Shown one piece after another: positions 2 through 32,000 of a DNA stretch of 32,000 nt. Under the pieces are notes generated by a model. It was not told where the DNA came from. It saw only the letters and a program-made list of their open reading frames with translations, and did no database searches. Position numbers and translations under genes: made by a program. This DNA is from Horticoccus luteus. GTDB lineage: Bacteria; Verrucomicrobiota; Verrucomicrobiia; Opitutales; Opitutaceae. Location of the stretch: contig NZ_CP080507.1 in the NCBI RefSeq assembly GCF_019464535.1, positions 4,260,001 to 4,292,000 of the forward strand, read 5' to 3'. Each line of letters starts with the position of its first letter. Within the stretch, counting starts at the first letter, position 1.

Positions 2-3000
2 AGCCGTCGCCGTCCAGTTCCCGCGCGTCAGGTTTCCGTTTCTGCGTTTCAAATCGAAGCGTTGGAAACGCGGCTTTTGTTATCGGCCACTCCCATGGCC
101 GCGCAAGTTGGAGCGCTGGAACCACTCGTGCAAGTCGTCGAAAACGTCGCGCACCGCCCGACCGCCATTGCGCACGCGGAGCAAGGCTCGGGTCTTTTTG
201 AAGGCATGGAGCTGGCCCCGGCCGCAGCGGAAAACGCGGCCACCGCCCCGGCGCATCAGGCGCATCGAGAAGTGACGCCAGCGGGTGGCGCGACGGAAGT
301 GAAAATCTCTGCAGCGCCCGCGCCCGTGTCCGTTGCTGAAAACGGGTCAGTCGCTGCGGCGGCAATTCCCGCGGCACCGACCGAGGTCGCTTCGGCTGCT
401 TCTCTTTTAGTTCTCACGCTCCACGCCAGCCAGGCGCCTCCGGTCGGCGCGGTTGCAGGTATCGCCACGGGCGATTCGCCTTTGGTGGCGGTGGTTGATC
501 AAAAACACGCGGCCGCTCCGGCTGCGGGCTCTGTTATCGAAGCAAACGCTTCGACGGGTGTGGTTGCGCTGAACGACCTGACACTCGGTGCGGATGATAC
601 GGTGCGCATCGGCATCACCGATGCCACGCACTACGGTCAGATTACGGTGAGCGGTGCAGCGACCTTGGGCGGCAAGCTCGATGTTCAGGTCGACGGTGCC
701 TACCAGCCGCACGCTGGTGACACGTTCGACATTGTTTCTTTTCCCGGCGTGAGCGGCAAGTTCGCCGACGCCTCCGGCCTCGCGGGCTTCGCGGACGGCT
801 CGCATTATTTTCAAGTGGTGCAAACTGCGACCGGCGTGAAGCTCGTCGTGCGCGAGATCGCCGGCGGCCAGATCGGCGCCTACCTCGCCGGCCAGGCCGA
901 TCAAGCGCTGCTCGGCAAGGTGCTCAACGGTTCCTATTTCGCGCCGACCAGCGTGACCGTGACGGGCCAGGTGCAGGTTTCCGATTTCGCCTACCTCTCC
1001 GGCACGTTCACGCTTTCCTACACTTCCTTCCTTTCCGTGACCGTGGACGGCGCAGCCAAACAGGTCGAAGCCGTGACGGTCGCGGCGGCGGGCGTCGATC
1101 TGTTCATCGGCACCGGCGGACCTTATTACGAAGCGGGCAACGTGACCAATCCCGGTGCGACCGGCCTTGCGTTGACCGGCGTGGATGTCGCCTTCGCCTG
1201 GTTCAAGCCGACCGACGAGGCTGACACCAGCCGCTACGTCGCCCTCAAGGCCAGCGCCACCGCCGCCACGTTTGTCGGCCTCCCGGACGTGCAGCTCAGC
1301 ATCACCGGTCTCGCGCTCTCTATTAATAGAGCATCTTCCGCGACCTCGACCGAGGAAGCCCCGGCGCCCGTCATCGATTTCAGCGCGCAAGCGGGCGGGG
1401 GCCTCTCAGTTGCCGTGGGCAGCCACACGATCTTGCTCGATTTCGCCAGCCGCGTCACCAGCGCGGCGATCACCGGCGGTGTGCTGCAGATCGCGGACTT
1501 CGTTTACATCAGCGGCGCGTTTGCTTTCACCAAGGGCGTTCAGACGACGGTCGACCTGACCGACGGCTCCACGAAGGCCGTCGATGTGGTCCAAATTGGC
1601 GGCGATCACATCCATCTCTTCGCGGGCGTCGGCGGGCCTTACTGGACCGATTCGAACAACGATGGCGTGATCGACGGCGATGACACACCGGCCGGCGACG
1701 CGGCCATCGGTCTCGCGCTCGGCGATGTTGCGTTTGCCGTCGCGGTTCTTCGTCCGACCGACGTCAACGACACCGCCCGCTACCTGGCGCTCAAGGTCAC
1801 CGCCGATTCCGCCGAACTCGTGGGCGTCGAAAGCATGGTGACGCTTTCAGCCAGCGGCATCTCGGTCGAGGCCAACCGCGCCACCGATCCCTCCAGCACC
1901 GATCCGATCGCGGCGGTGAACTTCTCTCTCTATAATAGTGGCGCCGGTTTCGACGTCAGCACGGGAAGCGGAGACATCGCCCTCACCTATGACCACGCCC
2001 TGCTGCGCGTCAGCGTGGCGGACGCGCTTTTCAGCCTTTCCAGTTTCGTCTACCTGCGGGGCGGTTTCGCGTTCGAACGCGGCCAGCCCGTGGTCCAGGA
2101 TAACGGCGACGGCACCTCCACTGATCTGGACGTGCTCACCGTCGGCGCGAGCAACGCCTACCTCTTTGCCGGCCTCGGTGGACCCTACTGGGTCGATTCC
2201 AACAACAATGGCGTGGTCGACGGCACCGACACTCCGGCCGCTGGCCCGGCGCTCGGCTTGGCCGTGGGCGGCGTAAATCTTGCCCTCGCGTTTCTGGAAG
2301 AGTCGGGCGTCGCCCAGCCGATCAAGTATTTTGCCGCCAAGGCCACCGTAGCCAGCGCGGCGCTCGTGGGCCTCGAGTCTGTGCTCACCGTCAGCGCGCA
2401 CAACATCACGCTCGAAATCAACCGCGCCACCGATCCAGCCGGCGAAGTTGAGGCCGGCGATTTCACGAGCCTGGCGGGCGGAGGCCTCATGGTCGAGACC
2501 GGCGGGACGCCGATCCTGATCGATTTCGATCACGCCTTGCTGCGGGTCAGCGTGGCCGACGCTTCGATCCAACTCTCCAGCTTTGTCTATCTGCGCGGCG
2601 GCATCGCCTTCGAACGCGGGGTCCCGCTCGTCGAAGATAATGGCGACGGCACTACGACGGCCCTCGATGTGGTCACCGTCGGCGGTTCCAACCTCTACCT
2701 CTTCGCCGGCTCGGGCGGCCCTTACTGGACAGACTCCAATAACGATGGCGTCGTGGACGGCACGGACACTCCGGTCGCCACCGGTGCGTTGGGCGTCGCG
2801 GTCGGCGGCGTGGATTTCGGCCTCGCGTTGTTGACCCAATCCGGCGTCGCCGATCCCGTGAAATACACCGCGCTCAAGCTCAACGCGGCATCCGCGTCAC
2901 TGGTCGGCTTCGATTCGACCGTGCAGCTTTCGGCTCAAGGCATTACGGTCGAGGTCAACACCGCAGTCGATCCGGCGGGCGTCGTCACGGCGGCCGACTT

Positions 3001-6000
3001 CAGCGGACTTCCCGGCGGCGGGTTGAGCGTCTTGACGGGCAACGCGCCCGTCGTGATCGACTTCGACCACGCTCTCCTGCGCGTCAGCATCGCCGATGCT
3101 CTCCTTCAGGTTTCCCAATTTGTTTATGTCCGTGGCGGCTTCGCCCTCGAGCGCGGAGCGCCGGTTGTTGAAGACCTCGGCGGCGGTGCCGCGCGCGACC
3201 TCGATGTGCTCACGCTCGGCTCGTCCAACGCCTATGTGTTTGCCGGCCTCGGCGGCCCTTACTGGGTCGATTCCAATAACGACGGCGTGGTGGACAGCCT
3301 CGATACTCCAGCTGCGGATGGCGCGATCGGCTTCGCGCTGGGCGGTGTGACCGTTGGCATTGCGCTGCTCGATCAGACAGGCGTGGCGCAGCCGGTCAAA
3401 TACGTCGCCGTCAAGCTCACGGCCGCGAGCGCGACGCTCCTAGGCTTTACAGACTATCTCACGGTCGACGCCCGCAACATCTCCGTCGAGGTCAACACCG
3501 CTTACGATCCGGCGGGCGTGGTCTCGGCGGGCGACTTCAGCGCTCTCGATGGTGGCGGGCTTTCAGTGCCCACCGGCGGTGATGCCGTTCTCATCGACTT
3601 CGATCACGCGTTGACGCGCGTGAGTGTGGCCGACGCGACGATCCAACTTTCCGAATTCGTCTTCATTCGCGGCGGCTTCGCGTTCGAAAAAGGCGTGCCG
3701 GTCGTTGAAGACTTGGGCGGAGGCGAAACGCGCAATCTCGATGTGCTGACGATCGGCGCTGCCAATGTTCACGTGTTCGCCGGCATCGGCGGCCCGTATT
3801 GGATCGATAGCAACGATGACGGGAAGATCGACGCCAGCGATACACCAGCTTCCGCGGGCGCCATCGGCCTCGCCGCTGGCGGCGTGACTTTCGGCCTCGC
3901 GTTGCTCAAGCAAACGGGGGTCGCCCAACCGGTCGAATATCTCGCACTTAAAGCCACCGCTGCGTCGGCTGCCCTCGTGGGCGTTGAGTCGACGGTCAAA
4001 CTTCAGGCGAGCAACATCTCCGTCGAAATCAACCAAGCGACCGATCCGGCCGGCGTGGTTGTCGCAGGCGATTTCACTCACATGACCGGCGGCGGCCTTA
4101 CCGTTTTGACCGGCGGCGACGATGTGTTGATCGACTTCGATTCCGCTCTCCTCCGCGTGAGCATCGGCAACGGTGTGCTCCAAGTTTCTTCGTTCTTCTT
4201 CGTGAGCGGGAGCTTTGCGCTCCAGAAAAGCACCACGACCGTCACTCTCGCGAACGGCACCGAAGTTGCGACGTCGCTCCTCACGCTGGGCGCCTCAAAT
4301 CTGACCGCGTTCGTTGGCCTTAATGGCCCGGCCGCGTCCGATTCGGCGATGGGTCTTTCGCTCACGGGCCTCGACTTTGGCCTCGCGCTACTCGCGCCTG
4401 ACGCCGCCGAAGATGCGTTGACGGGCGTAAGTTGGACGGCACTCAAAGCGTCCGCAACGGGGTTTGCGGTCGTGGGCATCCCCGACGTGACGATCACGGG
4501 CGCGTCGCTGCATCTCTCTATTAATACCGTGTCGGGTCTCGCGGCGGGCGCCGATGCCAATCTAAACGTGATCGACTTCGCGAGCGCGCCGCTCCCGGTC
4601 GCAACCGGCACGGGCACAAGTCTCGATCTGGACTTCGCCGGTGCCGACGGCCGTTTGCTTGAAGCCGCGGGCAACCTGACTCTCACGGTCGGCGGCTTCT
4701 TCAACGTCAGCGGCAATCTCGCCCTGCGTAAGTCGCTCGCCACGGTCACGCTCGCCGACAGCACAAACGTGTTGACCGATATGCTCACCATCGGCGGCAG
4801 CGACCTCACGGCGTTCGCCGGCCTCAACGGTCCCGCCGCCGAGGCGCACGCGATCGGTTTCACGCTCGCCAACGCGAGCTTCGCGCTCGGCCTGTTCTCC
4901 TCCAAGCCGGATGAAGATGGCCATGTGTCGAAGTGGACCGCCCTGCGCGCAACCGCCGGCACGATCGGTTTTATCGGCGTGCCGAACTTGGAGATTTCCG
5001 CCACCGAACTGACTGTGGCCATCAACCACAGTGGCGATGGCGTGAGCCCGGTGATCGATTTTGCCGCTGCTCCGGTGACCATCGCCACCGGGCCAGACAG
5101 TAGCGAAACGCTGGATTTTGCCGGCGGCCTCGGTCAGTTGACCCAAGCCAAAGGCCACGTGGCGATCGACCTTTTTGGCTTCGTGCAACTGAGCGCCGAT
5201 CTGGCGTTCGAGCGCTCGAGCGGCACCGCCACGCTCGACGACGGCAGCACGGCGGACGTCGACCGCCTCTTGATCGGTGGGCACGACGTCAACGGCTTCG
5301 CCGGTCTCAACGGCGGCACGGATGCCGCACTGGGCTTTACGCTAAGCGGTTTGGACTTCGCGCTCGCGATTCAGACGGACACCGGTGGCACCCGGTCCTG
5401 GACGACGTTTGAAGCCGACGCCGCCCAAGTCGCGTTCGTGGGCGTCCCCGGCCTGACCATTTCGGCGGATACTCTTTCGGTCGCAATCAACCAAGCCGCC
5501 GTCGCCGACAACAGCTTGGTCAACTACGCGACCGATGGGCTCGAGGTGACGACGGGGGCTTCGACGTCACGCACGATCAATCTCGATGCCGCCAACGGTC
5601 CAACGCTACGCGCTTCCGGCCACTTGGACGTTAACCTCTTCGGCTTTGTCTATCTTTCCGGCAGCTTCGGCTTCGAGAAAACTACGACCGACCTTACTTT
5701 GGCCGACGGCCGCACGGTCACGGGCGCCGATGTGCTCGCGCTCGGCGCGTCTCACGTTGACGCGTTCCTTGGCGTCAACGGTCCCGGCACCAACCCGTAT
5801 GCGATGGGCTTGGCGCTGCATGATTTGAATTTCGGCTTGGGCCTCTTCAGCGCGGAGGTTTCCGGCGCGACGGTCAAGTGGACCTCGTTGCACGCGGACG
5901 CCGCCTCCTTCGGCACGGTCGGCTTGCCCGGCGTCACCATCGAAGGCACGACCTTGTCGGTTGACGTCAACCAAGTGTCCGGTGTGCCGGCAGGTCAGGA

Positions 6001-9000
6001 TGCGGCCGACTGGGTCATCGATTTCTCGTCCGCGGCTTACACGATTACGACCGGCCCCGGCACGACGCTTGATTTGACGATGGATGGCGCGAAGGGCGAA
6101 TTGCTGCGCGCCTCAGGCCATCTGACAATCGTTCTCGCGAACTTCTTCTCGGTCACGGGCGATTTCGCATTCGAGCAATCCCGCGGCACGGTGACGCTTG
6201 CCGACGGCCGCCTGGTCGACGCCAACCTCCTCACCATCGGCACCGCCAACGTCGACGCGTTTGCTGGCTTGAACGGTAACACCCCTGAAGCGCTCGGTCT
6301 TTCGCTCACCAACGGCTCCTTCGCTCTCGCTCTCGTCTCCGACCGCGCGAACCCCGCGTGGCGCTGGATCGCGCTCAAGGCCTCGGCGGATCAAGTGGCG
6401 TTCATCGGCGTCGATGGACTGACGCTCGAAGGCACCGGCATTCTCGTCGAGATCAACCGCAACACCGGTTACTCCAACAACACTGTGCTGCATCTCGATC
6501 TCGCGGGCACGGTCGGCACGGTCTCGTTCACGCTCGCCGGCGCGACTCAGGATCTCGTTTTGGGCGACACCGAAACCGACGCGCAACTTGCCGCCGCGTT
6601 GCAAGCGAAGCTCGAGGCGCTCTCCGGAGTCGGCGCCGGCAACGTCCAAGTTTCGGGTAATCGCGCGGACGGATTTACGATTGAATTCATCGGCGCTCTC
6701 GCCGGTCAGGATCTCACTGGACTGTCGGTCGCCACAGTTGCGCCGTCGCTGTCCAGTTCTGTCGCCCAAACCACGCCAAGCACTGCCGGCACGAACGAGG
6801 TTCAGTTCCTCGAGTTCGTCGCCTCGCCGAATGTCTACTCCACCATCCGCCTGCTCTTCGGTGCGGACACCACCGCCGCCTTCACTTACGATGCGGATCC
6901 CGCGACGCTCGCGGCCTCGATCCAGACCGCCCTTCGCGCCCTCGGCTCCGTCGGATCAGATGGCGTCGCCGTCGCCTACGATTCCGCCCATGACCGTTTC
7001 GTTCTGACCTTCGGCGGCAGCCTCGCCAACCAGGACCTGCCCCAAGTCACGGCGCGCTTCATTACCGCGGGCGTTCTTGTTAACACTGTTTACCGGGTGA
7101 CGCTTAACGCTCCGCAGGCGACACTGACCTTTAACTACAACGGCCATTCTGCTCAGGTCGCTTACGACGCAACGACCGCCGACGCCGACTTGATCACCGC
7201 GCTCACGACGTCGCTGGCGTCCTTGTCTGGCATCGGCGCCGGCAACGTCCAGGTCACGGGCACCCGCGCCAACGGTTTCGCCATCGAGTTCGTCGGCACC
7301 CTCGCGCGCACGCCGGTCACCGGCCTCACGGTGACGACCACGTCCGCGCCGACCGCGACCTTCGTCACCGAAACAGCCGCAGCAACGCCGGGTGCAGCAT
7401 CAGCCTACGCGGTGTTGATCGACAACACGTCCCTCTCGGGCAGCGGCACCTATCAGCTTGAAGTGGGCTTCTTCCACACCGGCTACATCCGCTTCGCCGG
7501 CAGCGACGTCACCAATAACGCACGCTATCTCCGCCAGGCCCTCGAAGCACTGCCCAACGTCGGCTATGGCAACGTCACGGTCTCCTTCGACCAAGCCTCC
7601 ACCATCACGCAGCAACGCTACGTCGTCACCTTCAAGAACAGCGCCGCCCAAGTCGCGCTGACCGACGTTTCCTACCTGACGAGCCTGCGCCGCGCGAGCG
7701 TGTCCCTGGCGACCATCGGCGCCGGCACCGCCACCACCAACGAAACGCAACGCGTCTCCATCACCTCGCCCAACGGCGGCGCGTTCACGCTCAGCCTTAC
7801 TTACAATGCCGTCACTTATACGACGAAGGCCTTGGCTGTCGGCGCCGCCGCGCTCGAGGTGCAGAACGCCCTCAATCAAGCGCTCTCCGTCGGCCTAGTA
7901 ACCGTGACCACTTCCGGCGCCGATTACGACATCACGTTCACCGGCGGGTTGGCGGGCAAGAACGTGAACAACCTCGTCGTTGCCCTCACGCCGGGAGGGA
8001 AAGACGCCACCCTCGCACTCACTCAGACCGGCGGATCTACGAAGCCCCAGGCCGGGGCGCTCGTCATCTACCACGGCACCGACACCAACGGCCGCGCGCC
8101 CACCGGCGAAACGCAAACCATCACGATCGACCAAGGCGCCCCGGGGACCTTCACCCTTTCTGTCACGCTTTCCGGCACCACTTACACGACCACCGCACTC
8201 GACCTCGCAGCCGATGCGGCGACGATCCAGACGGCCCTTCACGCCGCGCTCAACGGAGATCATGCCGACGCCGAGTTCGATGTCGCGCTCACCGCGGACC
8301 GCACGTTCACCGTTACCTTTGGCGGCAGCCTCCTCGGCGTCGACCTCGCGGGTGTCGTCGTCACTCTCAACGCCACCGCGCCCACCGCGGCACTGACGAC
8401 CGAACAAATCGGAAAAACCGCCGATTCCGGCGGCACCGTCATCGACTTCAAAGCGCAGCCGCTCGAGATCGCCACCGGCCCGACCACCTCCACGACCCTC
8501 GACTTCGATGGGGCGGACGGGGACTTGGTCCGCGCGCAAGGCTATCTGACCATCGACCTCTTCGGTTTCGTCTTTGTCACCGGCAACTTCGCCTTTGAAA
8601 CGAAAACGGTCACGCAGACGGTCGATGACGTCACGACGGCTTACGATCAAATGACCATCGGCGCGGCCGATGCTTACGTGTTCGCCGGCATCGGCGGGCC
8701 CTATTGGACCGACTCCAATCACGACGGAAAAGTCACGGCTGAAGATGCTCCCGACTCTGCAGGCGCCATCGGCCTCGCGGTCGGCGGCGTCGATGTTGGG
8801 CTCGCCATCCTGACTCCGCAAGTTGAGGGCAGCACCGTCCGCTACCTCGGGCTCAAGATTGCGGCCGCCTCCGCCGAATTGGTCGGATTGGAAAGCCTCC
8901 TCACGATTCAAGCCCATGACGTCACGGTCGAACTCAACCAGGCCACGGATGCGTCGACGACGGTCGCGCCGGCGGTGCTCGACTTCAGCGCTTTTGATGG

Positions 9001-21000: not shown

Positions 21001-24000
21001 CGGCGCCCTGCTCATCGGTCCCAAGGGGATTGCCGCGCTCCTCGATCTTACGCTCTCGGTGGGGAATACGCCCGGCTTCACGCTCGCGGGTTCGTTCCAA
21101 CTGCGCCTCAACACCAGCAGTAGCGCCATTACCCAGATTGGCACGGTCACGGTCAATCTTCCGGCCGGTCCATACTTCCAGATCACCGTCTCCGGCACGT
21201 TGAATCTCGCGAGTGTCGTTACCCTGACAGGTTCCTTCACCCTCACGATCTCTCCCACGGGGCTCGCCATCGAGATTGTAGCGACCGCCAACTTGGGGCC
21301 GCTCGGTTCGCTCGGAGCCGGCGGGAGTCTCTATATCACCTCCGCCGGCCTGTATGGCAGTATCGAACTCAGCCTGAACGCCTCCATCGGCTTCGCGAGC
21401 GTCTCTTTCTCCGGTCGCTTCCAACTGGCCATCAATACGACGTCTTCCACCCAGACCGTCAAAGTTCTAAACGTCAACACGACCACGGGCGTCGTTTCGG
21501 GCCTCAAAGACGCGACCATCGCCCCCCTGACCGTCTTGATCAGCTTCGGTGGCAACGTCACCATTGGCTTCTTCGTCATCTCGGGTTCCGCGACGCTGAC
21601 CTTTGGCGCTGACGGTTTCTCGGTTGAGTTCGATGCTTCCCTGGATCTCGCCCTCTTCGGCACACTTTCCGTCAAGGGTGGGGCGATCATCCGCAGTGAT
21701 GGCGGCACGCCTTACTTCGCGCTCTACCTCGATCTCGGCGCCAACCTTCTCGCGATGGGGCTCGTGCAGCTCGGCGGCAACTTCACCCTCGAACTCAACA
21801 CCCGCGGCAGCACCGTCACCATCGCCGGTCACGACATCGCCGCCAGCACCTTCCGCGTCACGATCGCGCTCAAGCTCAAGATCTGGGTCTTCGAGGCCCA
21901 AGGCACGGCCTACATGCTCGCCAACTCCAGCTACTTCGAGGTCGGCATCACCAATCTGTCGGTCAACTTCTTCAATATTTTCAACATCGGTGTGAGCGGA
22001 TACATCCGCTCCAACGGCCAGTTCGAACTTACGGGCACAGCGAACTTCAATTTGGATTTCGGCCCCGTCTATTTCCACGCCTCCTTCTCGCTCACGATCG
22101 CCGATTGGGGCTTCAGTGGCCACGCCTCGGCATCCATCGGTCTGCATCTCGATTTCTGGCTCTTCTCGATCGACATCGATTTCACCATCTCGATCGGCTT
22201 CTCGTTCAACCTGAAGAAAAACTCCGTTACCTTCAGCTTCAGTATCTGGAAGTTCGGCTTCGATATTACTTGGTATTTCGGTTCGCCACCCGTTCTCGCC
22301 ACCAGACTCGCTGATGGAACCTTGCGCCTCAACATGGGCGTCGACGCGAAATACCGTGGTTCAGGCTATGGGGACGACACGGCCGAAAACTTCACCGTCT
22401 CACACGTCGGCGGCAGCGCCGGCAACGAGACCGTCCGTGTCTCCGCGATGGGTTACGAACAGGACTACGGCGGCGTCAGCAAGATCGTCGTCAACGACGC
22501 CGGCAACGGCAACGACGGCATCACGATCTCCGCCGGTGTGCTCGCGTCCGTCGACATTAACGGCGGCGTGGGCGACGATACGATTGTCAATCTCTCCTCC
22601 GGCGGCGGCACCATCCGCGGCGGCTCCGGCAACGACCATCTCATCGGCGGCCCCGGCACCAACTACATCTATGCCGGCGATGGTGACGACGACCTGAGCG
22701 GCGGCGAAGGCATCAACTACCTCTACGCTGAGTCCGGCACCAACACCCTTGCGGGCGGTGCGGGCGCCAACTATTTCTACAGCGGCACGGGCACCGATTC
22801 CATGAAGGGTGGCGGTGGCCTGAATACCTACATCTTCGCGGGCGCTTACGGCACCGATACGATCGAGGGTCACACCACCACGGACGGCCACCCCGATACC
22901 CTGCATGCGGGCGACATCGTGGATTTCAGCGGCGTCACCGCCCCGGTCACCTTTGCCCTCGGGTCCACCCACGTCATCACTTCCGGTTCGAACCAAGTCA
23001 CCATCACCGACCGCAGCGTCGACGTGTTTGTCGGCGGGTCCAACGCCGACATCTACAATGTCAGCTCGACCGCCGCCCGTGCCGCCACGCTCAAGGGCGG
23101 TCCCGGCAACGATACCTATAATATCACCCTCGGCAGCCTCGGCAGCACCGTCACCATCGACGATGCCAACAGCTCCACCAACGTCGACGTCCTCAATCTC
23201 ACCACCAGCGCGTCCTCGCAGGTTCGCGTTTCCCAGAGCACGGGCGACAGCAAGATCACCCAAGGTGCCCAGACGGTCCTCTACTCGCCGTCTTACACCA
23301 ACATCGAGCAGATGAACATTGTGGCGCCCAACGCCCCGGTGTTCGTCACCGGTCCCACGCCCGGCGCCGAGATGATCAACCTCCGCACGGACTTTACGAT
23401 CAACGCCCCCTCCGTCACCTGGAACGGCCGCATCCACGCCGGCCGGATCGAGTTCAATACCTCGTCCGCCATCGCGATCGACTACGACCTCGTCACGCGC
23501 GCCAACGGCAACGTCACGCTCAAGACCTCCTCGGGCGACATCAACCTCCATGCGGGCATTTATAGCGCCAGCGACGACGGCTACCTCGGCAACGGCTCCG
23601 GCACCGTTACCCTCACGGCGGTGAACGGCGGCATCCGCACCGATGGCAACGGCTGGCTCCGCAACGGCGCCTCCTTTGAGCAATGGCTCGATTGGGCTCT
23701 CCGCGCCGGCAAATACACTGCCGGCAGCACCAACTTCTCCACCGCGCAAATCACCGAGACGGGCGCCGCGCCTTGGGAAGAGTCGCTCTACCTTCCGAAC
23801 GGCACCGTCCTTCGTGCCGCCAACGGCGCCTTCATCCAGTCCGACCAAGGCACGCTCGTCATGAGCGCGAGCAACGGCATCGGCGCACCTCTCGCCGGCT
23901 TTGCCACCAGCCCCCTCGCCATCTTCACCGACGTCGCCGCCATCACCGTCACGACGCCGCTGACCACAAACTCCTACGTCACCGATCTCGACGATATTAC

Positions 24001-27000
24001 GAACTCCGGCACGTCGAGCACCGGCAGCTTCCAATTGATCAGCCTCTTCGGCACCCAGAACGTCACCCAGCCGATCGATACCGACAAAGAAGTCGTCCTC
24101 TCGGGCAACCAACTCGTCATCACGTCTCCCGTTAAGACCACCAAGAACATTCTGATCCTGCCCACCAACCCGCTGCTGCCGCTCGTGTTGGTCCCCACCG
24201 CCGCCTTCCTCGCCAGCGTTCCCGATGCCGCCAACGGTGTGATCCTCACGCAGTCCGAGCTCAATTTCCTCATCTCGAGCAGCAACGTCTACTTCGGCTC
24301 CAGCGATCTTCTCACCACGCTGATCCTCGGCGACGGCAAGAGCACCCCCGTTACGCTGCCCGGCCCGAACACCGTCCTCCGCGGCACCGAGATCAAAATC
24401 CTTTCGCCGACGCTCGCCCAGAATCTCCTCATCTTGGGCGACGGCACCACCGTCGATCTCGCCGCCGACATCACCGCCACCGGCGACGTCATCATCAACG
24501 ACTCCGTCAAGGTCACCGATACCCGCACCATCAGCGCGACCGGCCTCATCCGCATCGACTCGCCCGGCACCATCTTTGGCGATGGGGTGGGCGGCCCCGA
24601 CAGCCTTACGCTGACGGCCACCAGCGATGTTTACCTCGGCGGTGCGGTCGGGACGACCGCGTTGAAGAACCTCACGATCAATTCCGGCGGCAACGTCACC
24701 TTGAACGGCGCGACCACGCTCACCGGCAACCTCACCGTCAACAGCGGCCAGACCGTCGTCTTCAACTCCGCGCTCAATATCACGGGCGACCTCGTCCTCG
24801 ACAACGTTCAGAACGTCACCTTCAACGGCCCCGTCACCGTCGGCGGCAAGATCCAGATCAACAAGGCTGCCACCGTCACCTTCAACGGCAACGTCGGCGT
24901 CACCGGCACCTTCTCCATCGGCAGCTCCAGCGCCTATGCCAACGTCGGCGCCATCGTCTTCACCACCTCCGCCCGTCTCGACTTCTCCGGCACCACTGCC
25001 TTCTACACGTCCGGCTCCATCACCTTCGGCAACTCCATCGGCCGCAACTCCGCTTACACGCCGCAGGCCATGATCCTCGGTGCCGGCAGTGCCATCTCGT
25101 TCAACAACGGCGCTGAAGTCCTCCTCGGCTCCGCGCCGCTCTCCATCGTCTCCGGCACCAACGTCAGCTTCAGCAATAACGTCGCCGTGGGCGCCCTCAC
25201 GATCACCGGCGTCTCCGGCAATATCGACTTCCAGCAGACCACCCAGGTCGCGTCGATGGACATCACCACCAGCGGCGCCACCGCGCTCGCACGCCTCAAC
25301 TTCCTCGAAGTCGGCTCCGGCAACGCCACGATCACCGCCAACCAGATCGATTTCACCGGCACCGTCACCGATACCGGCGCGGCTTCGACGCTCACCCTCA
25401 AGCCCTACACCGTCAGCCGCGCGATCGCCGTCGGCTCCAGCCCCTCAGGCGGCGTGCCGTCCTTTAACAATCGCCTCGACCTCAGCGGCAACGACCTGCT
25501 CGCCATCCAGTCCGGCTTCACGTCCGTCAACATCGGCGATGCCAACGCCGGCACCGGCACCGTTTACCTCGGCTTCATGGGCACGCAGCTCTCCGGCGTC
25601 TCCTCCGAATATCTCAACCGCACCCAGATCTTCGGCGGCGCCATCATCGTCACCCAGCCCTTCGACATCAACCCCACCGTCGACTACTTCCGCCTCGTCG
25701 CCCGCACCGGCGACATCACCGTCAACGCCCTCGTCGGTTACGCGCAAAACAACACCCTCGCCGAGCGCAACGCCTGGCTGCGCTTCGAAGCCGCCGGCAG
25801 CATCGTCGTCAACGCCCCCATTTACGCGACCGATCGCATCTCCCTCTCCGCCGGCATGAACATCGCCGGATTCGCCGGCACCGGCATCGGCTCCATCACC
25901 GTCGCCACCACCGGCAGCGTCAACACGTCCAACGCCGCCGGCGTCAATCGCCGCATCGAGCTCTCCGCCGGCCCGCTCGGCGGTAACATCCTCCTCAACG
26001 GCGCCGCCGCCGAGTCCGCCATCCTCACCGCCGCCGGCAACGGCTCCAACTCGGAGATTGCCCTCTACGCCAAGGCCGGTGCCATCACGCAAACCTCCGG
26101 TCGCCTCGTCGCCGACCGCCTCGCGATGCAGAGCGCGAACAACATCACCGTGCGCACCAACGTCGCACGCCTCACCGCGCTGACCATCGCCGCCGCCGTC
26201 CTGCCCGCCGCCTCCGCCCAGACGATCAACGGCGTCCTCATCACCGGTGCCGGCACGCTCACCCTCACCGAAGTCGACGCCCTGATCGTCGACCAGATCA
26301 CGACGAACACAGGCGCCGTTTCCCTCACCACCGAAGTCGGCGGCAACGGCAACCTCAGCATCGGCAACATCAACACCGTCACCGGCGCGGTCACCCTCAC
26401 TGCCGACGGCGCCATCGTCGATAACACGCCTTCCAGCGACTCCGTCCCGAACATCCAGACCACCGGTCTTGCTTCGCTCTACGCCAAGACCGGCATCGGC
26501 GCCGCCGGCCTCGCGGACTTCGATCTCCTCGCCGGCTCGTTGCAGGCCACCAACTCCGTCTCGGGCGACATCTTCATCGAAGACGCCAACGGCCTCAACC
26601 TCACCGGCCCCGTCCAGACCACCGGCGGCAATGGCAATATCACCATCCTCGTCGGCGCCGGCGCGTTCAATGTGAACGCCAACGTCACCGCCCACGGTTC
26701 CGGCACCATTACGCTCACCAGCACGACCGGCACCATCACGCAAAACGCCGCGTCCACGATCAGCTCCACCACCGGCAATCTCGCCCTCAGCGCCACTAGC
26801 GTCACGCAAAACGGCGCCCTCGCCACCGGCTCCGCCGCCACTGTCAACGTCACCGCCACGAGCGGCGCCCTCACGATGGGCGACGGCGCCACCACCACCA
26901 CCGCCACGGGCGCGATCACCTACACTGCCGCCACCAGCGTGGCGCTTTCACTCCTCACGTCGACCAGCGGCGACCTCAGCGTCACCGCCACCAACGGCAG

Positions 27001-30000
27001 CATCACCGACAACACCGCCGCCGAAACCCCCAACCTCGTCACCACCGGCCAGACCACCCTCGACGCCAAGACCGGCATCGGCGCCGCCGGCGCGGCCGAT
27101 ATCGACACCACCGTCGCGACCCTCACCGCGACCAACCGCTCGTCCGGCGACATCTACATTCAGGAAACCGACACGCTCGTCATCAACGGCACCGGCGTCC
27201 GCACCCTGGCCGGCAACGGCAACATCAATCTCGATGTCGCCGCCGGCGATCTCACCCTCAACGCCGTCGTCACCGCGCACGGTTCCGGCACCATCGTGCT
27301 CAACGCCGACGCCGGCGCACTCACCATCGGCGCGGTGGTCAGCAGCACCAGCGGCGCCATCACCGCCTCGGCCGACCGCATCGCGCAAAACGCCAACATC
27401 GCCACCTCCGCCGGAATCATCTCCCTTACGACCGACGTCGCCGACCTCACGATGGCCGACGGCACCACCACCTCGACCACGACCGGCGCGATCACCTTGA
27501 CCGCCGCGACCGACATCGCGCTCAGCCTCGTCAGCAGCGCCTCCGGCAACCTCACGCTCACCGCCACCGCCGGCGCCATCACCGACCACACCGCCGCCGA
27601 GTCCGCCAACCTCGTGACCACCGGCCAGACCACGTTGACCGCCGCCACCCGCATCGGCGCCGCCGGCGATGCGGACATCGACACGACCATCGCCACGTTG
27701 CAGGCCACGAACACCGCGTCGGGCGACATTTATCTCCAGGAAACCAACACCCTCGTCATCAACGGCACGGGCGTCCGCACACTCGCCGGCAACGGCTCCA
27801 TCTGGATCGACACCGCCGCCGGCACCTTGACCGTCAACGCTGTCGTCACCGCACACGGCAGCGGCGCCATCACGCTCCTCACCGATGCCGGCGCCGCCAC
27901 ACTCAACGCCGTCATCTCCTCCACCTCCGGCGATCTCGCCGTCACCGCCACCGCCGTCACGCAAAACGCCGACCTCGCCACCGGCCTCGCGGGCAACATC
28001 GCGGTCACCGCCACGACCGGCGCGATCTCGATGACCGACGGCACCACGACCACGAGCGCCGCCGGCAACATCACTTACACCGCCGCCACCAACGTCGCCC
28101 TCTCGCTCCTCACCAGCACGACCGGCGCGCTCAATGTCACCGCCACCGCCGGCGCCATTTCCGATAACACCGCCGCGGAAACGCCCAACCTCGTCACCAC
28201 CGGCCTCGCCACCTTGACCGCCAAGAGCGGCATCGGCGACGTCGGCGCCGCCGACCTCAACACCGCGCTCGGCTCGCTCACCGCGTCCAACAGCACCACG
28301 GGCCGCATCGTCATCAACGAAGTCGACGCGCTGACCATCGCCGCGCCTGGTATTTCCAACACCGCCGGCACCGCCATCATCGTCACCACCGCCGCCGGCA
28401 CGCTCACCGTCAACGGTGCGGTCAACGTTTCCGCCGCCGGCCGTGTGCTCCTGCAGGCGGGTGGGGTGGGCTCTGATCTCTTTACCACCGCCGCCATCTC
28501 CTCCGGCACCGGCGCCATCACGCTCCTCGCCGCCCGCGACCTCAACGTCGCCGCCAACATCGCCACGGTCGGCGGCTCCATCGATCTCGAAGCCACCGCC
28601 GGCTCGCTCGCCATCGCCGACGGCGCCGCCCTCACGACGTCCGGTGGCAACCTTCGCGCCTTCGCCCACCTTTCCCTCGCCGTCACCGGCATCAACGTCG
28701 GCGCCGGCGGCGCCACGCTCACTGCCGTCACCGGCCAAATCACCGACGCGGGCGATAGCTTGATCGACGTCGTCGCGTCCCTCCTTCGCCTCTCCGCCGC
28801 CACCGGCATTGGCGCCGTCGATGCGATCGACGTTTCCGCCGGCACGCTCGCCGCGGCCACCACCTCCGGCGCCCTCCGCCTCAACGAAAGCGACGACGTC
28901 ACTATCGGCACCGTCGCCGTCATTTCCGTCAGCCGCGTGACCACCGCCGCCGGCGTGACCCCGCTCGCCGACAGCGCCGCCACCAGCGACCTCGTCGCCG
29001 GCAACGGCGGCGACATCGCCCTCACAAGCCTCGCCGGCTCCATCACGTTGACCGACGGCGTCAACGCCGACGCCACCGCCGTCCATTCCGACACCGGCAG
29101 CATCACCATCACCGCCGCCAACAACGTTCTTCAGAACGCCAACGTTTACACCGCCGCGGCCGGCACGATTTCTGTTACCGCCACGACCGGTTCCATCACG
29201 ATGGCCGATGGCACCAAGGCGCAGACCGTCACCGGCGAGATCACCTACCTCGCCGGCGTCAACGTCGCCCTCTCGCTGCTCACGAGCACGACCGGCGCGC
29301 TCAACGTCACCGCCACCGCCGGCGCGATCACCGATCACACCGCCGCCGAAACCGCCAACCTCTCCAGCGCCGCCCTCGCCACGCTCGTCGCCGGCACCGG
29401 CATCGGCGCCGCCAACGCCGCCGACATCGACACCACCATCGACTCCCTGCAGGCCACCGTCACCACCTCCGGCGGCATCTTCATCCAGGAAACGAGCGTC
29501 CTCGTCCTCACCGGCACCGGAGTCCAGACGCAGGCGGGCACCGGCGCGATTTCGATCCTCATCACCGACGGCAACCTCACTGTCGCCGCCCCCGTTCAAG
29601 CCTACGCGGGCAACGTTCGACTCGAAGCCGCCGGCACCACGCTCGCGAACTCCGACCTGCTCGTTAACGCCGCCGTCGGCTCCGGCGGCGGCAACCTCAG
29701 CCTCGTGGCCCGTCACGACGTCATCTTCGCCTCCGCCGGTAACGTCACCGTCTCCGCCGCTCCCGGCACCATCGACGTCTGGGCCCGCGAAGGTAAACTT
29801 CAGCAAGCTGCCGATCTCATCCTCGCCACCGACGGCGCCAACATCCGCCTGACCGCTGCGACCTCGATCATCGCGGGAGTCATCGACGCGCGGACCAACG
29901 CCGACCGTCTGGGCGGCACGCTGACGCAGCAAGCGGCCTGGGGCTCCCTCGCGCTGAGCGCCGGCAGCGGCTCGATCACCGACGCGAAGGCGCGCGGCGA

Positions 30001-31999
30001 AGCCGGCATCAACCTCTACGGCTCGTCCGCCCGCCTCTCCGCCGCGACCGACATCGGCGTCCTCGGTGCCGGCGTGGACAACGCCCTCGACACCGAACTC
30101 GTCACCGTCGCGGCCGAGACCACGACCGCCGGCAGCATCAACCTCGCCGACGCGAGCGACCTGACGGTGGACACCGTGGCGATCATCTACGTCAACCGCG
30201 TCGCCGCCGACGGCACCGCCTCCGTGATCGGCACGACCGCCTTGTCCGACCTGACGACCACCGGCAACGGCGCAATCGTCGTCACCGCCGCGGGCGACCT
30301 CACACTGAATGACGGCTTCGCCAACAACACCGCCGTCAGCGCGAACGGCACCGGCAACGTTTACGTCTCCGCCGCGAACGTCACCGCGAACGCGGACATC
30401 CTCAGCGGCAGCGGCGACATCACCCTCCTCGGCACGACAAACCTGACCTTCAACACGACCGCCGACGTCAAGACGAGCGGCGGCGACGTGAACTTGGTCG
30501 CGGCCGCCGGCGCGATCCTCTTCGCCGACAACGCGCAAGTCGCCACCTCCAACGGCAACGTCCGCCTGCTCGCCGCGACCGACATCACGCTCGGCGGCAT
30601 CCAAGCCGGCACCGGCTCCGTCACCCTGACCGCGATCGCCGGCTCGATCCTCGACGGCGGCGACACGTATCAAGACATCAGCGCCTCCGCCGCGCGCCTC
30701 GTTGCTGGCACCGGCATCGGCACGTCCACCAACCCGCTCGAAGTCGGCCTCGACACCCTCGCCGCCAGCGCCGGCAGCGCGGGCATCAGCCTCGTCGAAG
30801 ACAACGCTCTCACCGTCACAAACGTCTCAATCACCGTTCGCAGCGTCGCGACCGACGCCTCATCCGCCGCACTCGCCGCCGAAACCCTCTCCGACCTCAC
30901 GACGACCGCGAACGGCTCGATCGCCCTGACAATCATCGCCGGCGACCTCACGCTGAACGACGGCTTCGCCAACAACACGGCGGTCAGCGCGAACGGCAGC
31001 GGCAACGTTTACTTCTCCGCCGCGAACGTCACCGCGAACGCCGATATCCTCAGCGGCAGCGGCGACATCACGCTCCTCGGCGCGACGAACCTCGCCTTCA
31101 ACGCGACCGCCGACGTCAAGACGACCGGCGGCGACGTGAACCTCGTGGCCGGGGTGGGGGCGATCCTCTTCGCCGACAACGCGCAAATCGCGACCTCGGG
31201 AGGCAACGTCCGCCTCCTCGCCGCGACCGACATCACCTTGGGCGGCCTCCAAGCCGGCACGGGTTCAGTCACGTTGACCGCGACCGCGGGCTCGATCCTC
31301 GACGGCGGCGACACGTATCAAGACATCAGCGCGTCCGCCGCGCGTCTGGTTGCCGGCACCGGCATCGGCACGTCCACGAACCCCCTCGAAGTCAGCCTCG
31401 ACACCCTGGCCGCCAGCGCCGGCAGCGCGGGCATCAGCCTCCTCGAAGACAACGCGCTCACGATCACGAACGTGTCGGTCACGGTGCGCGCCGTCGCCGC
31501 CGACTTCACGTCCACCGCGCTCGCCGCCGAAACCCTCTCCGACCTCACGACGACCGCGAACGGCTCCATCGCCCTGACAATCATCGCGGGCGACCTCACG
31601 CTGAACGACGGCTTCGTGAACAACACCGCGGTCAGCGCGAACGGCACCGGCAACATCTACTTCTCCGCCGCGAACCTCACCGCCAACGCCGACATCCTCT
31701 CTGGCAGCGGCGACATCACGCTCCTCGGTGCCACGAACCTCACGTTCACCACGACCGCCGACGTCAAAACCACCGGCGGCGACGTGAACCTCGTGGCCGC
31801 CGCGGGTGCGATCCACTTCGCCGACAACGCGCAAGTCGCCACCTCGAACGGCAACGTCCGCCTGCTCGCCGCGACCGACATCACGCTCGGCGGCATCCAA
31901 GCCGGCACCGGCTCCGTGACGTTGACCGCCACCGCCGGCTCGATCCTCGACGGCGGGGACACCTATCAAGACATCAGCGCCAGCGCCGCTCGCCTGGTT
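2..31999 (+). CDS. Single giant repetitive exoprotein, a putative fibrillar adhesin or surface fibre. Partial at both window edges, with 10,666 codons inside the window. The start codon is probably a short distance upstream of nt 1 and the stop lies beyond nt 32000.
   Basis: The plus-strand phase with codons at nt 2,5,8... was translated by eye end to end without meeting TAA, TAG or TGA. The phase was re-verified at anchors 611, 1631, 2177, 2714, 3251, 3788, 6794, 7739, 8693, 11912, 21968, 22619, 24692, 30662 and 31310 (all equal 2 mod 3). The supplied track contains no plus-strand ORF in this phase, as expected if the frame never closes within the window. Third codon positions are strongly G/C. 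The translation gives coherent recurring motifs: GGPYWxDSNNDG, RGGFAFE[KR]G, GGxGxDxxx nonapeptides and NVTFNG rungs. Other frames give Arg/Gly/Pro/Ala/Ser-rich low-complexity strings. Confidence 0.93.
47..88 (+). other. N-terminal leader-type motif FQIEALETRLLLSA, preceded by an Arg cluster SRRR at nt 2-13. It resembles the [FL]ExLExRxLL[SA] motif I recall at the extreme N-terminus of many secreted giant proteins of Planctomycetota and the PVC superphylum (Planctomycetota, Verrucomicrobiota, Chlamydiota).
   Basis: Direct translation of nt 2-94 gives SRRRPVPARQVSVSAFQIEALETRLLLSATP. The family association is from memory, not a search. Confidence 0.5.
569..853 (+). other. Small N-terminal beta module with the signature GGKLDVQVDGAYQPHAGDTFDIVSFPGVSGKF (pattern GxLxVxxxGxYxPxxGDxFxIVxF..SGxF). 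Family not assigned.
   Basis: Direct translation. It follows an Ala/Pro-rich low-complexity linker (about nt 200-560). I recall similar signatures in other large bacterial surface proteins but cannot name a family with confidence. Confidence 0.35.
1322..4030 (+). repeat. Five tandem ~537-546-nt (~179-aa) protein repeats. Each carries one calcium-loop-like cassette FAGxGGPYWxDSNxDGxxDxxDTP. A degenerate cassette-less copy precedes them at about 923-1321.
   Basis: GGPYW codon anchors at nt 1631, 2177, 2714, 3251 and 3788 (spacing 546, 537, 537, 537). Unit consensus by eye: N[RQT]A[TVY]DP...DF..L.GGGLSV.TGG.PVLIDFDHALLRVS.ADA..Q.S.FVY.RGGFAFE.G.P.V.DNGDGT.T.LDVLT.GA.N.Y.FAG.GGPYW.DSNNDGV.D..DTPA..GA.G.A.GGV..GLA.L...GVA.P.KY.ALK.TA.SA.LVG.E......A..I.VE.N. 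Confidence 0.9.
4031..6454 (+). repeat. Five tandem ~460-505-nt (~155-168-aa) copies of the same scaffold lacking the calcium-loop cassette. Here FAGLNGP is followed directly by A...A[IL]G.
   Basis: F(A/V/L)G(L/V)NG anchors at nt 4310, 4814, 5297, 5765 and 6260. Unit-boundary motifs L.[LV].[IV]N at about 4522, 5027, 5486, 5966 and 6455. These copies share the G.[FL]AFE[KRQ] strand, the T[IL]G..[NDH][LV].[AG]F.G turn and the W[TI][AST][LF][KRHE]A strand with the long repeats. Confidence 0.85.
6455..8415 (+). repeat. Six unassigned ~95-120-aa modules. Several open with N/G-E-x-Q and close with ...G.GNV.V[ST]....F.[IV].F.G.LA...[LV]..[LV].V.
   Basis: Module starts are at about 6478, 6794 (NEVQFLEF), 7091, 7404, 7739 (NETQRVSI) and 8105 (GETQTITI). 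Recurrent internal pattern: a short T[FL][TS][LF] strand, then an Ala-rich helix-like A..[LI]Q.AL.AL segment, then G[AY]GNV.V, then F.[IV][ET]F.G.LA. Seen by direct translation only. Confidence 0.7.
8416..12150 (+). repeat. Seven further tandem ~525-540-nt (~175-180-aa) cassette-bearing repeats of the same family as 1322-4030.
   Basis: GGPYW anchors at nt 8693, 9236, 9776, 10316, 10853, 11378 and 11912 (spacing 543, 540, 540, 537, 525, 534). The first unit (8416-8940) has a hybrid N-terminal half resembling the short cassette-less units (VIDFKAQPLEIATGPTTSTTLDFDGADGDLVRAQGYLTIDLFGFVFVTGNFAFE). Confidence 0.9.
12150..14300 (+). repeat. Cryptic, degenerate ~120-140-aa periodicity. It is marked only by the anchor-strand motif G-x-[FV]-[ASE]-[FI]-[EQST]-[KRQ].
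   Basis: Motif instances: ISGRFAFERN around 12329, VGGDFAFSKG around 12709, LHGSFSFEQT around 13082, IDGDFSFQSA around 13445, LRGTVAFTRT around 13831 and LSGSVEIQKQ around 14249. Spacing is 363-418 nt. There is little other sequence similarity between units. Confidence 0.5.
16590..18412 (+). repeat. Four Ig-like (bacterial Ig / Big_5-like by motif) modules. The fourth carries an extra segment of about 75-90 aa.
   Basis: Recurrent module ends: RFRYQITNTDFAWSPGTLDISYSAGGFAQTV (to around 17050), NTYRYAFTGEFDPGDVVVSLAANTFADSAGFGNLAQTFTFRV (to around 17428), NTYRYTFTGTLVAGPVTVTFPEASFNDNAGTANLATTITFTL (to around 17785) and NTFRFHFDGDF...VTVSMAAGAFTDTAGNESAAFSATFTV (to around 18412). The pattern ..F.D.AGN......F.[VL] is what I associate with SbsA/Big_5-type Ig-like domains. 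This is a by-eye call. Confidence 0.55.
21968..22279 (+). other. Aromatic-rich segment of alternating hydrophobic and polar residues (amphipathic beta-strand pattern), in a locally A/T-richer patch. It lies at the junction between the N-terminal two-thirds of the protein and the RTX block.
   Basis: Translation: FFNIFNIGVSGYIRSNGQFELTGTANFNLDFGPVYFHASFSLTIADWGFSGHASASIGLHLDFWLFSIDIDFTISIGFSFNLKKNSVTFSFSIWKFGFDITWYF. The DNA here is visibly less G/C-rich than its flanks. Confidence 0.6.
22562..22837 (+). repeat. RTX-type (haemolysin-type calcium-binding) nonapeptide block of GGxGxDxUx repeats. It is internal to the protein.
   Basis: GGVGDDTIV lies at 22562-22588. Eight in-register 27-nt nonapeptides then follow from 22619: GGSGNDHLI, GGPGTNYIY, AGDGDDDLS, GGEGINYLY, AESGTNTLA, GGAGANYFY, SGTGTDSMK, GGGGLNTYI. 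Next comes the usual ..F....G.DTI......D.....D.VDFS tail, and a further GGPGNDTYNI occurs near 23098. Confidence 0.85.
24640..25400 (+). repeat. Parallel beta-helix-like region. Its core is four exact 60-nt (20-aa) rungs, followed by looser rungs.
   Basis: [NT]V[TV][LF]N[GS] rung starts at nt 24692, 24752, 24812 and 24872, exactly 60 nt apart: NVTLNGATTLTGNLTVNSGQ / TVVFNSALNITGDLVLDNVQ / NVTFNGPVTVGGKIQINKAA / TVTFNGNVGVTGTFSIGSSS. Similar but less regular [IV].F.[GN] rungs continue to about 25400. Confidence 0.7.
26440..29950 (+). repeat. Six tandem ~575-595-nt (~193-aa) divergent repeats of the type seen in FHA-like large exoproteins.
   Basis: GIGAAG-type anchors at about 26492, 27074, 27650, 28229, 28804 (diverged unit) and 29399. 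Unit consensus by eye: AE.[PA]NL.T.G..TL.A..GIGAAG.ADIDT...[TS]L.AT....G.I.IQET..LV.NGTGV.T.AGNG.I........LT.NA.V.AHGSG.I.L...... Confidence 0.8.
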
Positions 32000-32000
32000 G
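30014..32000 (+). repeat. Tandem array of 648-nt (216-aa) near-identical in-frame repeats. Just over three units are in the window and the array continues past the 3' edge.
   Basis: The string GAC AC[GC] TAT CAA GAC ATC AGC GC recurs at nt 30662, 31310 and 31958, exactly 648 nt apart. Units 30662-31309 and 31310-31957 align without indels at roughly nine matches in ten by eye. The shadow ORFs in the supplied track repeat with the same period: 30361/31009/31657 on minus, 30670/31318 on minus, and 30702/31350 on plus. Confidence 0.92.

Follow-up and report, generated by a model that had tools for sequence, protein, structure and literature searches.

Very large bacterial proteins have been described repeatedly: more than 41,000 proteins of over 5,000 amino acids are held in UniProtKB (PMC11573180), proteins of more than 10,000 residues are known from several reports on Planctomycetota (PMC12673574), and the record size stands at 85,804 residues in Omnitrophota (bioRxiv 10.1101/2023.11.21.568195). 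Giant genes of bacteria, including those of the Planctomycetota-Verrucomicrobiota-Chlamydiota (PVC) group, are also treated by Reva & Tummler 2008 and Kohn 2016, as cited in PMC12673574. The cell periphery is given as the location of most huge proteins of bacteria (PMC11573180), and the giants of the PVC group have been assigned to the cell surface or to the binding of calcium (PMC12673574). One set of giants shares the LEPR-XLL leader, which is represented in NCBIfam by the curated entry NF012209 ('LEPR-8K / LEPR-XLL domain-containing protein'); it includes a Vibrio protein of about 8,000 residues with C-terminal RTX and serralysin-type domains (PMC10868602) and a Limnohabitans protein that recruits metatranscriptome reads (PMC9611531). 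The stretch of 32,000 nucleotides analyzed here (the window, positions 4,260,001 to 4,292,000 of contig NZ_CP080507.1 of Horticoccus luteus) is the interior of one giant gene, whose product of more than 10,666 residues crosses both edges, and we regard this gene with high confidence as a real, single member of the LEPR-XLL family. The reading of the whole locus that we favor, with somewhat more confidence than doubt, is that of a single genuine LEPR-XLL gene coding for an exported surface fibre folded by Ca2+.

An earlier note on this DNA, made from the sequence alone, had counted the protein among the very largest of bacteria and had found its architecture unmatched by any described family. 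The first statement appears overstated in view of the sizes quoted above, and the second does not hold, because the leader belongs to a curated entry, the scaffold repeat is present in more than 1,300 cluster representatives and several of these keep the whole module order. The window protein diverges from the other members of this catalogued, widespread and uncharacterized family and is unusually long among them, but it is not unprecedented.

The locus resembles several known systems in part. With the giant genes of Planctomycetota, Verrucomicrobiota and other bacteria (PMC12673574; PMC11573180; West-Roberts 2023 bioRxiv) it shares the size class of more than 10,000 residues, the enrichment in PVC bacteria, a predicted role either on the cell surface or in binding calcium and a poor domain annotation, whereas the many transmembrane segments and the SecA-like domains of the Omnitrophota giants are missing. 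The RTX adhesins of type I secretion systems (T1SS), such as LapA, MpIBP, SiiE and FrhA, are likewise giant, repetitive, acidic, Ca2+-dependent and Cys-poor extracellular beta proteins with RTX nonapeptides, and the filamentous haemagglutinin (FHA)/TpsA proteins of secretion type Vb are similar in their long Thr/Ala/Gly/Asn-rich arrays with a periodicity of about 20 residues, suggestive of a right-handed beta-helix.

One coding frame across the window

A six-frame stop count over the whole window shows that the plus-strand frame opening at base 2 is free of stops over its 10,666 codons, compared to 43-788 stops in each of the other five frames. About 249 stops would be expected by chance in this frame from the base composition (64.2% G+C), and the probability of finding none is about 1e-108. 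The G+C contents at codon positions 1, 2 and 3 are 0.60, 0.50 and 0.83, respectively, and the value for the third position (GC3) exceeds those for the first and second in each 1.5-kb slice, with a range of 0.73-0.93 and values up to 0.90-0.93 in the last 8 kb. A giant frame running off both edges with coding-like third positions, as proposed in the earlier note, is therefore confirmed. Over the Thr/Ala/Gly-rich arrays (window positions 22500-32000), GC3 rises from 0.73-0.83 to 0.86-0.93 and the total G+C content from 0.62 to 0.70, with a GC skew down to about -0.3.

Further evidence comes from the internal repeats of the frame. The copies at residues 3036-3215 and 3216-3395 differ at 26, 15 and 74 nucleotides at codon positions 1, 2 and 3, respectively, corresponding to 63 synonymous versus 29 non-synonymous codon changes, and the 216-residue copies at the 3' end show the same excess of third-position differences. 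Because the differences between such young paralogous repeats lie mostly at the third codon position, the giant frame is under purifying selection as a coding frame.

None of the entries in the list of closed open reading frames (ORFs) lies in the giant frame, as had been stated before, while their number is 130 at a minimum of 60 residues instead of the claimed 170 or so and varies with the counting rule. The longest of them codes for 1,241 residues from a TTG start on the minus strand (window positions 26948-30673), antisense to the giant frame, and shows G+C contents of 0.92, 0.57 and 0.60 by codon position; a naive gene caller would list it as a gene. The long off-frame and antisense ORFs all have their GC-rich position at the first or second codon position, which identifies them as shadows of the giant frame. 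Neither tRNA genes nor Rfam matches were found in the window.

The leader and the family

More than 10,600 codons follow the leader motif, which opens at window codon 16. The motif is therefore located right at the N-terminal end of a protein of very great length. The first 34 residues, consisting of a basic stretch and the motif itself, read FQIEALETRLLLSATP. Residues 16-34 align to positions 1-19 of the 24 positions of the NF012209 profile with 24.4 bits (E=1.5e-5) against a curated cut-off of 17, so that the previously suspected leader-type motif is genuine; scored inside a 2,500-residue tile, it reaches 18.2 bits. Seven relatives obtain comparable scores of 22-37 bits. In 24 relatives with intact N-termini, a K/R-rich stretch is followed by F.LE.LE(P)R.LLSADP at residues 11-46 and then by an acidic region. 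The longest hydrophobic run within the first 80 residues extends over only 3-6 residues in these proteins and over 3 in the window leader, which indicates that the leader is no classical Sec or Tat signal peptide. The N-terminus of the relative P0073, MSPEKPDFSVELLEARILLSATPM, closely resembles that of the window protein and is located directly 3' of an intergenic gap of about 200 nucleotides. As no ATG, GTG or TTG precedes the motif in the window, the true start must be upstream of it, probably by less than about 30 codons as judged from the relatives. The full-length protein probably has at least about 11,100 residues.

A HMMER search of 1.84 billion cluster representatives with a profile of the 18 scaffold units described below yielded 1,376 representatives at E<=1e-3, of which 431 also pass E<=1e-30; many are proteins of 5,000-7,900 residues. 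They derive from Opitutales, other Verrucomicrobiota, Planctomycetota and Pseudomonadota and are all labelled as hypothetical. No segment of the window protein lacks homologues within the top 150 of these relatives, the nearest of which show about 30-36% identity. Module order was tested by greedy collinear BLAST chains, which cover 4,000-4,800 aligned residues at 30-33% mean identity for the following four proteins:

P0073: MCC5834415.1, 7,459 residues, NCBI partial protein from an Opitutales metagenome-assembled genome (MAG)
P0007: MCC5833759.1, 7,902 residues, NCBI partial protein from the same Opitutales MAG as P0073
P0055: 6,503 residues, JGI
P0032: 6,541 residues

The shared order is leader, N-terminal domain, beta scaffold arrays of about 180-residue units, central module, repeats of about 115 residues, RTX block and solenoid-like arrays; P0073 and P0032 bear the LEPR-XLL leader. 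On all tested features, the window protein agrees with the LEPR-XLL giants (NF012209; MCC5834415.1, MCC5833759.1, Limnohabitans WP_104798714 and the Vibrio protein of PMC10868602): an F.LE.LE.R.LLSA(D/T)P leader scoring above the cut-off, giant size, near absence of Cys, which also applies to its relatives, an internal RTX block and the module order. It differs from them by its own repeat numbers, by about six inserted 105-residue modules between the scaffold arrays and by its length of more than 10,666 residues, which exceeds that of any single LEPR-XLL database entry retrieved (at most 7,902 residues, mostly partial).

The Opitutales MAG mentioned above (GCA_020831485.1, loci L005 and L007) codes for at least two paralogous LEPR-XLL giants of 7,459 and 7,902 residues on different contigs, both running off contig ends. 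Three further relatives (P0035, P0047 and P0149) have a common C-terminal ending, ...(F)EYW.E..(I/F), possibly a signal conserved at the C-terminus; the window stops before the end of its own protein.

Module organization of the protein

The module map was derived from self-comparison (self-BLAST and autocorrelation) and from comparison with the relatives. All features are on the plus strand and are given in window coordinates:

2-46, plus strand: basic stretch before the motif (SRRRPVPARQVSVSA), without a start codon; relatives have 6-41 K/R-rich residues at this place
47-103, plus strand: LEPR-XLL leader motif (FQIEALETRLLLSATPMAA), residues 16-34, matching NF012209
104-991, plus strand: Ala/Pro-rich linker, then conserved N-terminal domain (residues ~130-330), from collinear BLAST
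992-4198, plus strand: scaffold array 1, six type-A units of about 179 residues (residues 331-1399), period 179
4199-6646, plus strand: scaffold array 2, five type-B units of about 155-168 residues (residues 1400-2215), from self-comparison
6647-8416, plus strand: about six modules of about 105 residues (residues ~2216-2805), from self-BLAST and sequence inspection
8417-12322, plus strand: scaffold array 3, a partial unit and seven type-A units (residues 2857-4107), from self-comparison
12323-14491, plus strand: divergent scaffold-like beta repeats (residues ~4108-4830), weak internal repeats
14492-16681, plus strand: conserved central module (residues 4831-5560), the best-conserved part of the family
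16682-18451, plus strand: about five repeats of about 115 residues (residues ~5561-6150), from self-BLAST, collinear with P0032, P0055, P0001 and P0053
18452-22351, plus strand: beta-rich region with a conserved module at residues ~7050-7450, from collinear matches
22556-22900, plus strand: RTX calcium-binding nonapeptide block (residues 7519-7633, about 9-10 repeats), Pfam HemolysinCabind
22901-24448, plus strand: conserved post-RTX region (residues ~7634-8149), 36% identical to and collinear with P0073, visibly kept in P0007
24449-26101, plus strand: region of 20-residue periodicity (residues ~8150-8700), from autocorrelation, collinear with P0007
26102-29971, plus strand: Thr/Ala/Gly-rich super-repeats of about 192-194 residues built on 22-24-residue sub-repeats (residues ~8700-9990)
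29972-31999, plus strand: at least three 216-residue super-repeats, the array crossing the 3' edge

The protein is of a secreted-type composition: it contains no Cys, is acidic (pI 4.18, with 952 Asp and Glu versus 400 Lys and Arg) and has no transmembrane segment, as no 19-residue window exceeds a Kyte-Doolittle value of 1.9. Scans against Pfam were run on 2,500-residue tiles at E<=0.01 and module by module at E<=5. This segment-wise search, which had been suggested in the earlier note, identified the RTX block as the only feature recognized by Pfam and the leader as that recognized by NCBIfam; PDB sequence searches found nothing beyond the RTX block. The latter is genuine, with 37 bits (E=2.8e-9) against a cut-off of 23 for HemolysinCabind and with PDB matches to the RTX block of CyaA (7rah, E=3.8e-14) and to RTX lipases.

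The 18 scaffold units, 13 of type A and five of type B, correspond to the 17-18 copies in two versions noticed before. Array 1 carries a GGPYWxDSNNDG loop in five of its units, the first one being degenerate, with the DxNxDG loops at residues 550, 732, 911, 1090 and 1269; those of array 3 are at residues 2904, 3085, 3265, 3445, 3624, 3799 and 3977. Loops of this DSNNDG type are thus present in 12 of the 13 type-A units and would add 12 putative Ca2+-binding motifs to those of the RTX block. The type-B units lack the Ca-loop insert and are 26-31% identical to type A, with invariant F/G/A/N columns in common; as judged from sequence, both types should be regarded as one fold family. A single-sequence AlphaFold prediction of the scaffold gave a predicted local distance difference test score (pLDDT) of 35, and the scaffold-repeat profile found nothing significant in the PDB. 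With an alignment of 32 sequences (A2), consisting of consecutive unit pairs from the window and of short relatives, two type-A units (residues 862-1219) were modelled with a mean pLDDT of 90.8 and a predicted template modelling score of 0.87. According to this confident model, the scaffold unit is predicted to consist of beta structure throughout; the strands span 13-20 residues, and the DSNNDG insert forms a loop that connects two of the long ones.

The block of about 105-residue modules (consensus ...LQxAL..L.GxGxGNVxV....GFxIxFxGxLAGxD...) splits the scaffold arrays, is also found in P0002, P0014, P0018 and others, and obtains just a sub-threshold BON match in Pfam. The N-terminal domain is matched by BLAST in P0007 (query residues 133-1408) and P0073 (211-339) and weakly in L001, with no Pfam match in residues 35-330. 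The divergent scaffold-like repeats are collinear with P0055 and P0032 (query residues 4298-4760) as well as P0001 and P0053. The central module has 28 homologues of 38-53% identity (E down to 1e-183; 41% identity to P0055), all annotated as 'hypothetical protein', mostly partial and without a Pfam domain; the labels of the respective MAGs are Planctomycetaceae, Pirellula, Verrucomicrobiae, Sterolibacteriaceae, Ilumatobacter, Actinoplanes and Gammaproteobacteria. The repeats of about 115 residues are possibly Ig-like, their match to Big_13 being non-significant (E=3.5). No Pfam match was obtained in the beta-rich region, which is collinear with P0073 (query residues 6798-8315) and with P0055 and P0032 (7051-7382).

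The RTX block is followed by at least 3,033 residues within the window. Residues 8150-8700 show autocorrelation peaks at lags of 20, 40, 81, 121 and 141, suggesting that this part is probably a beta-solenoid, and residues 8700-10666 show peaks at 22, 24 and 44. The DNA copies of the 192-194-residue super-repeats, which are collinear with P0007, P0073 and P0055, are 71-76% identical, while the 216-residue super-repeats show 84-98% identity in protein and 89% in DNA, again on sub-repeats of 22-24 residues. Of the beta-helix and FHA-like arrays in the earlier note, the solenoid-like periodicity of 20-24 residues was retained; the likeness to FHA was not, as no filamentous-haemagglutinin or two-partner secretion (TPS) profile matches at E<=5. 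In a contig of 5.5 kb (Ga0164241_10018923, L002:5017-5457), Cys-containing FG-GAP-like repeats (GDFDGDHRTDLLCHD...) continue unbroken into 47 residues at the contig edge that are 89% identical to the 216-residue repeat; either the module was shuffled into a different protein, or the contig is a chimera of the assembly.

Proposed role and alternative explanations

In the proposed mechanism, the polypeptide would be exported unfolded by a route without a classical Sec or Tat signal and would fold outside the cell upon binding of Ca2+ to the RTX block and the DxNxDG loops. On the cell surface, the product would then form a rigid all-beta fibre of great length with the scaffold arrays as its spacer or stalk, and the central module and the C-terminal solenoid arrays may provide the surfaces through which adhesion, aggregation or contact between cells takes place. 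The leader, with its basic residues before and acidic residues after the motif, may serve the machinery of export or anchoring for recognition or retention. We give the functional part of this reading, an extracellular Ca2+-dependent fibre or adhesin, an even chance of being correct. Several observations weigh against it. The RTX block precedes the 3' end of the window by more than 3,000 residues, unlike in T1SS substrates, where the RTX repeats adjoin the C-terminal signal. No adhesin, lectin, enzyme or toxin domain is recognizable in the Pfam and NCBIfam scans of the 10,666 residues, and the solenoid-like character of the C-terminal arrays is suggested by periodicity alone. Neighbourhoods of up to 10 kb were inspected on one side of each of four relatives (upstream of P0073, P0007 and P0008, downstream of P0185), and no genes for a T1SS (ABC/MFP/TolC), a TPS/TpsB system or a type II secretion system were present there. 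Finally, we found no experimental work on the LEPR-XLL family in the literature, which contains passing mentions only.

A T1SS adhesin of the LapA/MpIBP/SiiE kind, exported C-terminus first via ABC/MFP/TolC and held by an N-terminal retention plug in the outer-membrane pore, would account for a huge repetitive beta protein with a genuine RTX block, no Cys, an acidic composition and no Sec-type signal, and the Vibrio LEPR-XLL giant indeed carries C-terminal RTX and serralysin-type domains (PMC10868602). The T1SS route is plausible by composition, but the RTX block is followed by more than 3,000 residues in place of a C-terminal signal (the true C-terminus lies beyond the window, where a second RTX block is possible), Ig-like (BIg), cadherin or VCBS repeats have no Pfam match, a LapG-type retention module is not recognized, the N-terminal motif is a different one and the inspected neighbourhoods lack T1SS genes. 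In the visible sequence, the protein departs from the LapA type in its extender domains and in the position of the RTX block, and we consider this explanation unlikely. An even less probable one is a delivery or attack device: a giant of the hemagglutinin or MARTX type, triggered by Ca2+, would touch another cell and inject or transfer itself or its payload, which is what has been proposed for the giant symbiosis proteins from 'Chlorochromatium aggregatum'. In kind, the C-terminal solenoid-like arrays together with the RTX block are similar to the RTX and hemagglutinin-like giants described in bioRxiv 10.64898/2026.03.19.712371; an RHS-repeat protein is encoded directly upstream of one relative (P0008). 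However, the similarity to these giants is only compositional. Neither a TPS domain (PF05860; module scan at E<=5) nor Fil_haemagg or Fil_haemagg_2 repeats (residues 8200-10666, E<=5) are found, and no toxin, peptidase, lyase or effector domain was detected in 10,666 residues. Membership in the FHA/TpsA group itself was rejected because of the missing Sec signal, TPS domain and repeat profiles, and the inspected neighbourhoods of the four relatives contain no TpsB gene.

The remaining alternatives concern the existence of the gene. A repeat-driven misassembly that joined or expanded modules, or a decaying pseudogene, might be suspected from the highly repetitive units of 179 and 216 residues, from the 89% DNA identity of the last three copies and from the possibly chimeric L002 junction with the same 216-residue repeat. 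Such a sequence would not remain open over 10,666 codons, and collapse or expansion by an assembler is unlikely because the repeat copies differ by 10-70%; in addition, the module order is collinear with independent relatives and synonymous changes dominate between the copies, so that an artefact is very improbable. The idea of many small genes on both strands, which corresponds to the closed-ORF track with its long antisense ORF, is effectively refuted, as all long off-frame ORFs carry the shadow signature of a GC-rich first or second codon position and the giant frame has homologues over its whole length.

Gene neighbourhoods and annotation of the relatives

The region upstream of P0073 contains housekeeping genes. 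Upstream of P0007 are genes for a GerE-type regulator, glycosyl hydrolases and glycosyltransferases, with a 220-residue GerE protein directly preceding the giant gene (L007:8909-9571), and downstream of P0185 a regulator-like gene, coding for a response regulator with a GerE domain (L004:26786-27556), is accompanied by metabolic genes. GerE/LuxR-type regulators near two relatives point to possible dedicated regulation. The RHS-repeat protein upstream of P0008, a LEPR-XLL giant from a Verrucomicrobiota MAG, has 1,999 residues with DUF6531 and is encoded 6 nucleotides upstream of it (L006:134-6133).

Two other relatives, on long-read metagenome contigs, illustrate how such genes are represented in databases. 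In a contig of 207 kb (ENA ERZ25039586 contig_9508, L003:1-23078), gene calling has broken the giant gene up into a series of over 12 small genes that are spread over both strands and carry no Pfam domain save a weak RTX match. In ENA ERZ25039597 contig_83934 (L008:1-36719), the coding region of the relative is divided among a row of at least four ORFs on the same strand of 715+, 3,101, 5,572 and 3,568+ residues, probably by frameshift errors of the long-read assembly; their total of more than 12,900 residues indicates that family members of the size class of the window protein exist. The warning in the earlier note that the locus would be mis-annotated as small genes is correct for closed-ORF tracks, which miss the giant gene, and for the case of L003, but not for standard gene callers, which report edge-partial giants such as P0073 and P0007.

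Implications

Sequence searches of Pfam, NCBIfam and the PDB leave about 99% of the gene without a match, which means that much of the giant-protein repertoire of environmental bacteria is unannotated. The locus also illustrates two failures of annotation: closed-ORF tracks display antisense shadows in place of the giant gene, and error-prone long-read assemblies shatter it, as in L003 and L008. The confident model of the scaffold repeat of about 180 residues could become the definition of a domain family. Size alone is unexceptional for PVC bacteria; the interest of the family lies in its dark content, its non-canonical leader and the unmatched fold of its scaffold. A family this widespread (more than 1,300 cluster representatives), with a conserved module order and a non-Sec-like leader, is likely to share a route of biogenesis. 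As a bolder and rather doubtful proposal, the LEPR-XLL leader, which lacks a hydrophobic core, might address the largest proteins of PVC bacteria, and of some Proteobacteria as well, to a dedicated and hitherto undescribed pathway for their export or anchoring, and the Ca-loop scaffold might represent a new fold from which extracellular beta fibres of micrometre scale are built. If this were true, the window would be among the longest intact examples for studying both the pathway and the fold.

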